A DNA stretch of 64,000 nucleotides from contig OZ024752.1 in the NCBI GenBank assembly GCA_964016885.1, positions 48,484,001 through 48,548,000 of the forward strand, written 5' to 3'. The notes under the pieces are model-generated. The model worked only from the letters and a program-made list of their open reading frames with translations, did no database searches and was not told where the DNA came from. The first letter of the stretch is position 1. The number at the start of each line of letters is the position of its first letter. Positions 1,334-60,572 of the stretch are shown here, one piece after another. The stretch is from Eledone cirrhosa. Taxonomy: Eukaryota. The position numbers were made by a program, and so were the translations under genes.

Positions 1334-1463
1334 TTATACATATATATATATATTTATACATATATATATATATACATATTCATACATATATATATATATA
1401 TATACATATTTATACATATATATATATACATATTTATACACATATACATATATACATATTTAT

Positions 1464-1521
<58 letters not shown>

Positions 1522-1756: not shown

Positions 1757-2646
1757 CAGAAACAGCTACATGTTGGTGGTGGTGGAAGAGATGGTATAGA
1801 TGGTGGTGGAGGAGAAAGATATAGTATAGATGGTGGTGGTGGAGGAAGAGATTAATATAGATGGGGGGGGGGGGAGAATGGCAAATAAAGAAGGTAAATT
1901 TTAAACAACAGAAACAGCTAGATGTTGGTGGTGGTGGTGGCAGATGAGATGGTATAGATGTTGGCGGTGGTGGTGGTGGTGGTGGAGGAAGAGATGGTAT
2001 AGATGGGGGTGGTGGTGGTGGTGGTGGTGGAGGAAGAGATGGTATAGATGGGGGTGGTGGTGGAGGAGGTAAAGATGGTATAGATGTTGGCGGTGGTGGT
2101 GGTGGTGGAAGAAGATATGGCATAGGTGGTGGTGGTGGTGGCAGATGAGATGGTATAGATGGTGGTGGTGGTGGTGGAAGAGATGGTATAGATGGGGTTG
2201 GTGGTGGAGGAGGTAAAGATGGTATAGATGTTGGCGGCGGTGGTGGTGGTGGTGGAAGAAGATATGGCATAGGTGGTGGTGGTGGTGGCAGATGAGATGG
2301 TATAGATGGTGGTGGTGGAAGAGATGGTATAGATGGGGTTGGTGGTGGAGGAGGTAAAGATGGTATAGATGTTGGCGGCGGTGGTGGTGGTGGTGGAAGA
2401 AGATATGATATAGATGGTGGTGGTGAAGGAAGTGATAGTATAGGTGGTGGAGGAAGAGATGGTAAGATGGTGGTGGTGGTGGTGGTGGTGGTGGTGGAGG
2501 AAGAGATGGTAAGATGGTGGTGGTGGTGGTGGTGGTGGTGGAGGAGGAAGAGATGGTAAGATGGTGGTGGTGGTGGTGGAGGAAGAGATGGTGTAGATGG
2601 TGGTGGTGGGGGGAGGGTGGCAAATAAAGAAGAAGGTAGATTTTAA
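1757..2646. repeat. Tandem duplication with expanded GGT/GATGGTATAGAT low-complexity core
   Basis: CAGAAACAGCTA.ATGTTGGTGG starts at ~1757 and ~1909; TGGCAAATAAAGAAG...TTTTAA ends at ~1904 and ~2646; the second copy has a much longer (GGT)n interior. The Pro/His-rich ORFs here are artefacts. Confidence 0.75.
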
Positions 2647-3879
2647 TGACAAGGAAACAAGATTTATTACTTTTAATTCTGTTTCTGTTTTTAACCATCT
2701 ATTTTTTTCCTCTTCACTCTTGTATTTTAATTTTTATTTTTTCACTTTTGTCAGTTTTAAAAATGTTTAATTTTTCATTTTTTGTATTTTTCATTTTCTT
2801 TATAATTATTTTTTTTTGGGTGAATTCTGCTTTATATTTTTTTTATTTTATTTTGTATATTTTATTTTGTATATTTTATTTTGTATATTTATTTTTTTTA
2901 TTTTACTTAGATTCTTATGTGTTTGTGTGTGTATATATGTCTGTGTGTCTGTTTATGTGTGTATGCCTATGTGTGTATGTCTATGTATGTATATGTATAT
3001 CTATCTGAGTATATATGCAGGTGTATGTCGGTCTGTGTGTCTGTATTTGTCTGTTTATGTGTGTTTGTTTATGTGTGTATGTTTATGTGTGTATGTTTAT
3101 GTGTGTATGTTTTTGTGTGTCTGTTTTTGTGTGTCTGTTTTTGTGTGTCTGTTTATGTGTGTATGCCTCTGCATGTATGTCTGTATCTATATCTGTCTGA
3201 GTATATATATATATATATATATACAGGTGTATGTCTGTGTGTGTATGTGTCTACGTGTGTCTATGTGTATACCAACGTGTGTTTGTCTGTGTATGTATGT
3301 CGATGTGTGTGTCTATATATATATATCTATATGTGTGCCTATATATATGTCTGTGTATGTATGTGTGTGCCTATATATATATATGTTTGTGTGTGTGCCT
3401 ATATATATGTCTGTGTATGTATGTGTGTGCCTATATATATATATATGTTTGTGTGTGTGCCTATATATACGTCTGTGTATGTATGTGTGTGTCTATATAT
3501 ATATCTATATGTGTGCCTATATATATGTCTGTGTATGTATGTGTGTGCCTATATATATATATGTTTGTGTGTGTGCCTATATATACGTCTGTGTATGTAT
3601 GTGTGTGTCTATATATATATATATATATGTTTGTGTGTGTGCCTATATATATGTCTGTGTATGTATGTGTGTGTCTATATATATATATGTTTGTGTGTGT
3701 GCCTATATATATGTCTGTGTATGTGTGTGTCTATATGTATGTCTCTGTATGTATGTCTATGTGTATATAACTATGTGTGTGTATGGAGAAAGTGATGTAG
3801 TTTTTGTCAGCATCAGAATCCAGTTTAATTATGTGCCTTATCAAAATATGAGCCATGAGTCTATCTTGTGTCCAACACC

Positions 3880-6399: not shown

Positions 6400-6761
6400 C
6401 TAAATTTAAGTTATACATACAGGTATTAGATTCAAAAATTCTAACCATCCTCAAACTAAAAAGCCCAGCTGAGGGCACAAATAAATTGCTATGGACTTCA
6501 CTGGTGGGATATCCTCCTGCAGGGGGCTCAAAGCAATTTCTGCCCCCCCCCCCCCATTAAATCTGTAGGGTTCAGACAACCAGTTGGTTTGGTGAGAAAT
6601 TTGTTTATCCCCTGACACCCTACATTGCATGTGTCCAGCCATAGACAAGACACATAATTATGAGAAATATATTTATATATATATATATATTACTCTCTTT
6701 ACTCTTTGTTCTTGAATGTTTGGTTGGTAGAGTCCATAACACCAATCAAACCCCTTTTATA

Positions 6762-6806
6762 GCTCTGACGAATCCTACGGTTACATAAGGAAGAAACATT
6801 GTAAGC
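6762..6806 (+). ncRNA. Minimal type I hammerhead ribozyme motif
   Basis: GCT-CTGACGA-ATCCT(ACGGTTACATA)AGGAA-GAAA-CATTG-TA-AGC: stem I GCT/AGC, stem II TCCT/AGGA, short stem III, GUA triplet. Confidence 0.6.
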
Positions 6807-6954
6807 CAATAAAAATCTTTTGATGTTGTAGACGCTCTTGTGTTCTTTATCATATATATATATATATATACGTTATTCCGGGTTGAATCGGAGGTAACCA
6901 CAGTATGTAAGGTACTCAATACATTGCAGAGTATAAAAGTTTTAATATAGATGA

Positions 6955-7003
6955 GATTCTACAGGACTAGAACTGTTTCATTCTTTAGAAATCATCAGGA
7001 ATC
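6955..7003 (-). ncRNA. Type I hammerhead ribozyme (family A, minus arm)
   Basis: Exact reverse complement of 7008-7056. Confidence 0.85.
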
Positions 7004-7007
7004 AGAT

Positions 7008-7056
7008 GATTCCTGATGATTTCTAAAGAATGAAACAGTTCTAGTCCTGTAGAATC
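7008..7056 (+). ncRNA. Type I hammerhead ribozyme (family A, plus arm)
   Basis: GATTC-CTGATGA-T TTC TAAA GAA T-GAAA-CAG TTCTAGTC CTG-TA-GAATC: 5-bp stem I, intact core, stem III ACAG/CTGT, GUA cleavage predicted after 7051. Confidence 0.85.
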
Positions 7057-7068
7057 TCATCTATATTA

Positions 7069-7142
<74 letters not shown>

Positions 7143-7383
7143 TACATATATATATATATAATATGTATATAGATACATATATACAAATATATATATATAC
7201 ACAGATAAGATACATATATATAATATATAAGATCAAAAGATGGTTAAAAGAGTTCCATGTATTTTATTATGCGCATTTCAAAAACAAATATCATCATGCA
7301 ATAACATTTGCGTTTTCGTCAGATAAAATAGGGAGACATGATATGAAGGTTAAAACACACTTGTGAATAGTGCAGTTTTAAAT

Positions 7384-19618: not shown

Positions 19619-19903
19619 GGAAAGTTATATTTTAAATTGTTGGGTTACAACTAGTAAATATTTATAACTGATATAAAAGCACTCGACAAATATTTGGAGT
19701 ATATTTACAATATTAAATAAATGGAAACCTCTCCAAATGGAAGTCGGTGTTTATAACGGTATGTCGAATATATTTATCTATAAAACTGTTTATATTGTAT
19801 TTTGTCTGAGGAAGGCATAGCATATTGTTAATATGATATCCCCGAAATATATATAATGAAATAGATATGGTTTTATAAATATAGTTTCCATTTATTTAAT
19901 ATT

Positions 19904-25571: not shown

Positions 25572-25823
25572 TGCAAGATGGCGTAGGACAGAACAAAGGA
25601 GAGGCACAAAAACAAAGAAAAGAATCCCCAGTCACTGAAGAGGTCACAGAATGTGTGACGAAAGAACTTTGACAATATATAAACAACCATCTGGTTGTGG
25701 AACCAACCAACCAACCGGAAATTTATAAATTCCTAAATTTATAAATTTATTGTAATAAATTGAAGTGAAAGCAACTGGTGCGTGTGTTTCTTATTGGCAA
25801 CATGACCCTCCCAAAGTATAACA

Positions 25824-36092: not shown

Positions 36093-36244
36093 AGATATAT
36101 ATATATATATGCAGAGGTTATATTTAATTTGTTGGGATTCAACAAGCATAAACATTTTTATAACTGATATAAAGCACTCAACAGTTTAGTGGAGTAAATA
36201 TACAATATATTAACAAATGGAAACTATATTTATAAAACCATATT

Positions 36245-36310
36245 TATTTTATTATACATATTTCAAGGGCCACCAAGGCAAATTATGGTGTGCTTTCATC
36301 AGATAAAATA
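36245..36310 (-). ncRNA. Type I hammerhead ribozyme (family D, minus arm)
   Basis: Reverse complement of 36423-36488. Confidence 0.82.
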
Positions 36311-36422
36311 CAATACAGATTTATTTTATAAATAAATGTTGACATACCCTGAAAAAAGACAACCTTAATGGTTGGGAGCTTCCTGGATAGTCAATATTTA
36401 TTTATAAAATAAATCTGTATTG

Positions 36423-36488
36423 TATTTTATCTGATGAAAGCACACCATAATTTGCCTTGGTGGCCCTTGAAATATGTATAATAAAATA
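36423..36488 (+). ncRNA. Type I hammerhead ribozyme (family D, plus arm)
   Basis: TATTTTAT-CTGATGA-AAG..CACCA..TGGTG..CTT-GAAA-TATGTA-TA-ATAAAATA; perfect 8-bp stem I. Confidence 0.82.
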
Positions 36489-36533
36489 AATATGGTTTTA
36501 TAAATATAGTTTCCATTTGTTAATATATTGTAC

Positions 36534-37852: not shown

Positions 37853-37916
37853 ATCATCAGTGATTTCCTTCAAATGAAACAGTTCTAAACCTGTAGAAGC
37901 CATTTCTATATTAAAC

Positions 37917-37957
<41 letters not shown>

Positions 37958-40842: not shown

Positions 40843-41062
40843 TAAGATGGTGTAGGACAGAACAAAGGAGAGACACAAAATAAAAACCCAGTCACTGAGG
40901 AGGTTACAGAATGTGTGACGAAAGAGCTTTGACAATATATATACAACCATCTGGTTATCAAACCAACCAACCAACCAACCAGAAATTTATAATAAATTGA
41001 CGTGAAAACCAACAGGTGCATGTGTTTTTATTGGCAACATGACCCTCCCAAAATATAACAAT
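40843..41062 (+). mobile_element. Hammerhead-bearing element family B, copy 2
   Basis: Homologous to 25572-25825; (TA)n flanks. Confidence 0.75.
40891..40933 (+). ncRNA. Minimal type I hammerhead motif (family B)
   Basis: GTCA-CTGAGGA-G-GTTACA GAATG TGTGAC-GAAA-GAGC-TT-TGAC. Confidence 0.65.
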
Positions 41063-41309: not shown

Positions 41310-41476
41310 CCTCGGCGGGATTTGAACTCAGATCATAGAGTTACCTCCCTGTATGATCTGAGTTCAAATCCCGCCGAGGTTAACTTTGCCTTTCATCCTT
41401 CCGGGTTCGATAGAATAAAGTACCAGTAATGCATTGGGTAATTGTTGGCCTTGTGCCAAAAGTAGAAACAATTATT
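41310..41476 (+). mobile_element. SINE S3 with 5' inverted duplication
   Basis: 28-bp arms 41310-41337/41352-41379; TSD ATTATTAAAAT at 41298-41308 and 41471-41481. Confidence 0.85.
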
Positions 41477-58938: not shown

Positions 58939-59207
<269 letters not shown>

Positions 59208-59232
59208 ATATATATATATATATATATATATA

Positions 59233-59412
59233 CGTTATTCCGGGTTGAATCGGAGGTAACCACAGTAAGTAAGGTACTCAATACAATGCAGAGTATAAAA
59301 GTTTTAATATAGATGAGATTCTACAGGACTAGAACTGTTTCATTCTTTAGAAATCATCATGATTTCTAAAGAATGAAACAGTTCTAGTCCTGTAGAATCT
59401 CATCTATATTAA

Positions 59413-59416
<4 letters not shown>
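59233..59416. mobile_element. Family A palindromic element, copy 2 (hammerhead core truncated)
   Basis: Near-identical to 6871-7068; arms 59300-59357/59359-59416. Confidence 0.85.
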
Positions 59417-60370: not shown

Positions 60371-60488
60371 GTATATGTATAAAAAAGTATTCTACAGGAC
60401 TAGAACTATTTCATTCATATGAAATCATCAGAATTTATTGAGTACCTTGTTTCCTGTGATTGCCCTTAATTTAACTAGGAATTTACAC

Positions 60489-60572
<84 letters not shown>

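Follow-up and report, generated by a model that had tools for sequence, protein, structure and literature searches.

A palindromic pair of hammerhead motifs in the genome of Eledone cirrhosa as the probable stub of a Hydra-clade Penelope-like element

Introduction

How does a perfect palindrome come to carry a hammerhead motif on each of its strands, and would such an arrangement serve a purpose of its own? The question is raised by positions 6871-7068 of a stretch of 64,000 nt from Eledone cirrhosa (assembly GCA_964016885.1, contig OZ024752.1, positions 48,484,001 to 48,548,000 of the forward strand), the whole of which is referred to here as the window. In the original prediction the palindrome was read as a self-inactivating ribozyme cassette, in which ribozyme and anti-ribozyme would pair, silence cleavage and offer instead a double-stranded RNA to ADAR or Dicer. 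What escaped that reading is that the locus is a fragment of a Penelope-like element (PLE), that its sense strand is the minus strand, and that its tail is 5′ UTR of a reverse transcriptase (RT) gene. Taken singly, the locus is an ordinary dead retroelement stub of published architecture, and not a purpose-built self-silencing ribozyme; very probably it represents a Hydra-clade PLE whose insertion came to a dead end, leaving two head-to-head stubs within (TA)n, whose ends would have come from run-off of the RT on uncleaved RNA. Its value lies in the population to which it belongs, a young family with more than 8,000 copies of the tail and with ends that accumulate at the first base of the ribozyme, 30 nt downstream of a TATA box.

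The palindrome and its hammerhead motifs

Over 62 bp, the arm at 6943-7004 is the exact reverse complement of that at 7007-7068; a 2-nt spacer, GA, separates them, and a tail of 72 nt (6871-6942) is attached to one of them only, all as had been predicted. A pattern scan likewise recovered the hammerhead announced for each strand, as a type I motif at +7008-7056 and at -7003..6955, with a stem I of 5 bp, the core CUGAUGA/GAAA, a stem III of 4 bp and a GUA triplet, and its position agrees with the cleavage expected after 7051. The type I core CUGANGA / GAAA / UH is present together with stems I, II and III; stem II is weak, with 3 bp only, U.U replaces the canonical G10.1-C11.1 pair, and loop III has 8 nt and contains CUAG. 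At the gathering score Rfam gave no match in the window, and in E-value mode it returned only generic hairpin families, the best hammerhead families standing at E 3.5 and 9.5. Of the 119 distinct variants that are in register (from 352 matches, with some loci counted twice), 117 carry U.U in place of the canonical pair at 10.1/11.1, the core columns are nearly fixed and loop II is variable; the conservation of stem III is partly built in, since the anchor of this alignment fixes the stem III region. At pair 2 of stem I, a compensatory change from A-U to C-G is found in 8 of the 119, which belong to sister subfamilies.

Folded whole by RNAfold, the palindrome forms a stem of 61 bp closed by a loop of 4 nt, at an energy that none of 200 shuffles matched (z -20.8). 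In a transcript that ran through it, this hairpin would outcompete the ribozyme, as was foreseen (-102.1 kcal/mol versus -21.8 kcal/mol, by computation, for the most stable fold in which a hammerhead is retained), and such a transcript would be a plausible substrate, still putative, for ADAR or Dicer. The isolated arm has an MFE of -6.0 (z 0.07) in a fold that is not hammerhead-shaped, its hammerhead fold coming to -2.6 kcal/mol, and stem-loop III is computed at -12.8 kcal/mol as an RNA-RNA duplex versus -1.4 kcal/mol as a monomer hairpin. Pairing of stem-loop III between two RNAs would be in line with the dimer-type hammerheads of PLEs. In the available portion of Cervera and de la Pena (2014, PMC4209133), the dual minimal hammerheads of truncated PLEs are of low activity and dimer-type, and lie on opposite strands some 100-700 bp apart; an extra base between 9 and 10.1, a palindromic loop 3 and a likely dependence on dimers are shared with them, while here, unlike there, the motifs abut, U.U stands for G10.1-C11.1 and helix III is present.

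Table 1. Features of the insertion and of a second one of the same family (positions in the window)
Feature	Position	Strand	Remarks
(TA)n target, tail side	6854..6870
Sense, tail-bearing, 5′-truncated PLE copy	6871..7003	-	133 nt; hammerhead and 5′ UTR
One-sided tail	6871..6942	-	72 nt; part of 5′ UTR
Type I hammerhead motif of the pLTR, native sense	6955..7003	-	predicted cut after 6960
Head-to-head junction	7004..7007		letters non-parental, variable between copies
Inverted, tail-less second copy	7007..7068	+	62 nt; motif 7008-7056, predicted cut after 7051
(TA)n-rich target, inverted-arm side	7069..7200
Second insertion, same family	59233..59416	-	fold-back inside ribozyme core

The parent element

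A PLE origin was tested on the long copies, which do continue into an RT ORF. In its sense, which is minus in the window, the element consists of a TATA box, the hammerhead, the 72-nt tail, which in full elements runs on for about 48 nt more to an ATG, an ORF of about 715 codons, a microsatellite-rich 3′ UTR and a pLTR; the order from TATA box through hammerhead, tail and ATG to ORF was found in four copies (L125, L139, L151 and L347), and a pLTR stands in partial tandem on both sides of the ORF in L124/L347, L139 and L125. The 198-nt stub itself holds no ORF; its sense arm of 133 nt starts at the first base of stem I, adjoining the putative transcription start, and differs from the ORF-linked copies L151 and L139 by 3-4 substitutions, and its inverted arm is identical (61/61) to the tail-less pLTR end of L125.

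The protein contains RWR (a conservative change from RWK), DKT, YRDD, CxCx5C (CNCLNKEAC), a GIY-YIG-like YIG, CxxC (CDLC) and CxH (CMH), with no CCHH by eye; the parent ORF thus combines an RT with a C-terminal GIY-YIG, as in EN+ PLEs. Each ORF copy translated end to end has a stop or a frameshift. Pfam found GIY-YIG in the protein at E 0.0086, under the cut-off, and no RT family, and a PDB sequence search with it returned nothing relevant; among the Atlas neighbours at 0.92-0.97 there are some clusters in which 21-27% of the members have GIY-YIG and 13-23% RVT_1.

In the portions of Craig et al. (2021, PMC8557442) available to us, the marks of the Hydra clade are RWK, DKT, a CxCX5C linker, CxxC, CxH, the lack of CCHH and a (TA)n target. 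The single ORF of RT plus GIY-YIG, the RW[KR]/DKT/CxCx5C/CxxC/CxH series, the target, and the hammerhead near the 3′ end with its core of the form “ctgatgat ... tgaa” are the same there as here; several Hydra families share the acag/ctgt stem III and an A at the cut, the U.U layout is common in the published Hydra hammerheads, and Penelope-13_HM (File S2) has an inverted 5′-truncated copy with the same hammerhead on both strands, as in our locus. The likeness to the Hydra proteins in the alignments of the supplement was judged by eye only. As differences, loop III has 8 nt here versus 0-3 in the published Hydra hammerheads (with a stem II of 3 bp here), and the element measures about 3.7 kb versus less than 3 kb in the clade, a length due to the long microsatellites of its 3′ UTR. 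The clade includes an octopus family, Hydra-1_Obim, whose hammerhead is unlike the present one, and the latter was not found in the available part of the supplement. By these sequence comparisons, the parent very probably belongs to the Hydra clade of the PLEs, apparently as a new Hydra family.

Long (TA)n/(TG)n tracts lie in the 3′ UTR of L125 (6300-7100) and of other long copies, and the family may itself be spreading microsatellites by this route.

The wider PLE layout is also that of the locus. In the published material accessible to us, PLE insertions are 5′-truncated, often adjoin an inverted 5′-truncated copy, have a one-sided tail of 30-40 bp and carry the hammerhead in the pLTR (PMC8557442), and pLTR, inverted truncated copy, one-sided tail and junction palindrome are found identically here, apart from the greater length of the tail (PMC8557442, Fig. 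2; PMC3846280); the pLTR of Adineta Pen2a has a TATA box, as does the present one, and an Inr-like sequence (PMC3846280).

The family in the genome

The assembly searched comprises 3.0 Gb in 1,796 contigs. With the 198-nt stub as query, 1,516 first-look candidates were obtained, and 37 of the 40 that were scored are 98-100% alike, nearly end to end. Exact patterns gave 8,671 matches to the 72-nt tail, 1,014 fold-backs with a complete 5′ strand of stem I on both arms, 5,474 read-throughs into upstream sequence (tandem arrays counted in) and 112 tails continuing toward the ORF, and the reversed-pattern controls gave 0. The read-through matches divide between the strands as 3,826 versus 1,648, a skew that tandem arrays such as that of L129 and L132 may explain.

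This array (C1:83679000-83692000) is head to tail and retrozyme- or satellite-like; its units, at least 12 in number and about 1.07-1.1 kb long, all carry pLTR, hammerhead and tail. For the stub, identity with the non-LTR retrozymes was rejected: according to the portion of their description at hand (10.64898/2026.07.22.740005), these are PLE-derived, non-coding and provided with a type I hammerhead, as is the stub, but they form head-to-tail tandem repeats bounded by cleavage sites, whereas the stub is head to head.

Numbers of this order could be taken to favor the cassette of the original prediction, either as a selected substrate of ADAR or Dicer or as a palindromic mini-element copied whole, all the more so as the hairpin would dominate folding and at least 1,014 such palindromes exist, with most of the scored matches so closely alike over about 198 nt. 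We consider this very improbable. In 30 near-identical loci, the window's own among them, a TA run follows in 30/30 and the letters at the fold vary by copy; in 30 loci picked by their tail alone, the distance of the fold-back point from the 3′ end ranges from less than 100 to more than 250 nt, some of these copies extending further upstream. Many junctions are local slips. A full ribozyme on both arms (each of at least 132 nt) was found in 19 of 90 sampled insertions, the other 71 lacking it on at least one arm. Junctions, arm lengths and outer ends that differ from copy to copy are not to be expected of a copied master unit, and this origin was rejected; as far as the sequences can tell, the palindrome is formed anew at every insertion. 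Moreover, the stub would be promoterless, since the TATA box is absent from it, and a crude look at the ORFs recognised no host gene in the window.

The insertion at 59233, which had been taken for an independent copy of the same object, does not have that character. It folds back about 7 nt earlier, with 58-bp arms centred on 59358, and on both of its strands stem I has no 5′ strand and CUGAUGA lacks its C, so that neither holds a complete hammerhead. This, with the variation of junction letters and fold-back points, leaves no conserved cassette, and the self-inactivating unit is not upheld, nor is there any sign of selection for one. Both copies are embedded in (TA)n. Beside the second lies, at 59048-59208, an imperfect inverted repeat whose one-sided extension ends in (TA)n, tail to tail with it, and this nested layout matches that of 6720-7068.

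That the palindrome is a fold-back artefact of assembly seems hardly conceivable to us. Palindromes are a known hazard of assembly, and none of the contigs of four public runs spans all 198 nt; these contigs (of one study, possibly of the assembly's own sample) do cross the centre of the arms at varied points, and against such an origin stand the unique flanks on each side, the (TA)n at either end and, at more than 1,000 places, ends fixed by the element. If some of the perfect 60-bp hairpins, at least 1,000 in number, sit within transcripts, they would constitute a sizeable incidental source of dsRNA.

Where the copies end

The ends were studied on one contig (C1), whose first 100 tail matches in order of position supplied 90 copies, two of the 90 being one duplicated locus; of the ten left out, four were the last in the list and six came from read-through copies or their surroundings, so that the sample is slightly enriched in short ones. 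Positions are counted in nt from the 3′ end, where stem I begins at 133. The sense 5′ ends fall at 132-136 in 20 copies and at 120-131 in 22, that is, at 120-136 in 42/90, and the remainder at 87-92 (3), at 249 or more (21) and elsewhere (24). An inverted 5′-truncated copy adjoins the 5′ end in 56/90 insertions, and in 55/69 of the short ones, and its own 5′ end lies at 132-136 in 32/56 and at 120-131 in 16/56, together 48/56; the outer ends of the inverted arms are 61-74 nt from the 3′ end in 57/59 arms, a tail of 61-74 nt there; against the 30-40 bp of the accessible PLE description (PMC8557442), the tail of this family is of 65-72 nt. A TA run follows 86 of the 90 copies. Each insertion is thus folded on its own, yet with a strongly preferred point, and truncation is non-random, with its peak at the first bases of the ribozyme, unlike what that description gives for PLEs in general.

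The predicted cut site is not the place where copies usually begin. The idea, drawn from L125, that full-length copies begin there was rejected, as this holds for 1 of 30 ORF-start loci, among which 17 begin at 235 or beyond, with at least 235 nt of upstream pLTR, and 6 at 125-141; beginnings near the cut amount to 3/90 and 1/30 in the two samples, and microhomology could account for them.

What precedes the preferred point is a promoter motif. In the longer copies, counting from the base that precedes stem I, TATAWAW lies at -30 to -33, as the sole match in 55 of 65 distinct upstream sequences, with a TATA slightly further up in 2/65 and absent in 8/65. Where a non-parental base precedes the A at +1, it is G in 76 cases, T in 13 and A in 11, the parental base being C (first 100 of 2,284 places, counted by eye). 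An extra G at the end of a cDNA is expected from copying of the cap, as is established for other retroelements. The sister subfamily with the compensated stem I, whose stem III/stem I motif is matched exactly 10,643 times in the genome, has a TATA at -30 in 28/30 loci and no AG at the boundary of stem I in 30/30 (loci chosen by likeness to one copy). Among 30 of its matches taken in order of position, 14 reach upstream, two of them by about 29 nt only, and 16 end between +1 and -10 of stem I, four exactly at +1, the bound of -10 being set by the search pattern itself.

Run-off and its alternatives

Given a PLE origin, run-off at the transcription start is, in our judgment, the probable cause of the pile-up, in view of the position of the ends, the TATA box 30-33 nt upstream, the extra G and the equal stop in a sister subfamily without AG. 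From the promoter of the pLTR, transcription would begin close to the base that precedes stem I; the enzyme would nick both strands of the (TA)n target and prime two cDNAs at sites within the RNA, one at about 65-72 nt and one at about 134 nt, so that the tail would remain on one arm only; both cDNAs would be extended to the capped 5′ end of the uncleaved RNA and, with a few slipped or untemplated bases added to their ends, would be joined head to head. The pairing of ribozyme and anti-ribozyme would be a by-product of these events. The tail is likely the portion of 5′ UTR between two preferred insertion ends, these being the two RT start sites. Such a process has parallels in the available part of Frangieh et al. 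(2024, PMC11167929), where Poseidon PAc of Anolis in vitro cuts AT-rich DNA on both strands and extends each of them, the tail is delimited by two internal RT start sites, and the main template is uncleaved RNA; the likeness covers these three points, not the inverted junctions, and PAc belongs to a different clade, with an ORF that starts inside the hammerhead, while here the ATG is about 130 nt downstream.

Against run-off, the extra G could equally derive from snap-back of the cDNA through stem I, and 22/90 ends, at 120-131, lie 2-13 nt inside the supposed start, so that trimming or joining by microhomology must be added to it. The same PLE by-product could, in other words, owe its pile-up to stalling or snap-back of the RT at stem I, or to exonuclease trimming down to a folded or protein-bound ribozyme. 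A cDNA that stops at the 5′ strand of stem I has a pairing partner in the complement of this stem, L039, L143 and L182/L184 are joined at precisely that microhomology of 5 nt, and the frequent local slips at junctions agree with it; this would leave unexplained a TATA box at -30 to -33 in two subfamilies, the monomer fold of the ribozyme is weak (-2.6 kcal/mol), and the site is read through in thousands of copies. We therefore regard it as possible, though on balance rather unlikely.

Less plausible still is that the edge of the hammerhead is a 3′ splice site. For the Penelope of Drosophila virilis, the accessible portion of PMC4209133 does place the end of an intron at the 5′ end of helix I, and in the main subfamily a T-rich tract and CAG precede stem I. 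The junctions, however, show no constant exon upstream, and the sister subfamily is without the boundary AG in 30/30 loci and yet has the same stopping place, which makes this explanation distinctly improbable.

Returning to run-off at the transcription start, a more far-reaching form of it may be put forward as a doubtful speculation: the stubs would be a run-off map of a capped RNA that starts at the first base of the hammerhead, is reverse-transcribed in its uncleaved state and, as a dimer through stem-loop III, would feed a dimeric enzyme able to make the two arms simultaneously, the ribozyme being mainly a module of dimerisation and of the 5′ end that gives rise to the head-to-head junction, with cleavage secondary.

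The formation of head-to-head copies in PLEs and the role of the hammerhead are declared open questions in the available text of PMC8557442, and the stub population makes both testable with a template of 134 nt. A literature search found no paper that ties a pile-up of PLE truncations at the first base of the hammerhead to the start of transcription, most subscription papers being outside its coverage. By linking the end hotspot to a TATA box, the present observations refine the published PLE architecture modestly.

Neighbouring motifs and related loci

Other hammerhead-like motifs accompany the stub within the window. At 6720-6853 (+), an unrelated minimal motif with the core CUGACGA near 6766 and a short stem III belongs to a fragment, probably of another PLE family, which runs up to the (TA)n shared with the stub of 6871-7068, the two lying tail to tail. 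At 36130-36530 there is a head-to-head pair (-36310..36245 and +36423-36488) that belongs to another family, whose stem I has 8 bp; single motifs at -7330..7260 and +19798-19863 are related to it. Further matches to the pattern lie at 25631-25673 (+) and 40891-40933 (+), which are related to each other, and at 25963-25889 (-), and diverged members of the stub's own family group, with altered stems, at 37860-37920 (+) and 60389-60490 (-). A search of the whole window for inverted repeats was swamped by microsatellites; a perfect inverted repeat of 28 bp with a 14-nt spacer is found at 41310-41379, inside a tRNA/SINE-like repeat.

In the first 7 Mb of C1, 8 of 30 loci (L256-L259, L261, L265, L270 and L271) represent one decayed fragment of the sister subfamily, with identical flanks, which indicates that it is carried within a larger repeat. 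Elsewhere, positions 1400-1467 (+) of L059, which we take to resemble U6 snRNA, are fused between two tail-bearing arms, and this suggests a template switch onto a cellular RNA. Finally, two arms of the family in L127 enclose a long ORF (1826-3800, -) for a different RT of PLE type (YSRYVDD), inserted between them.
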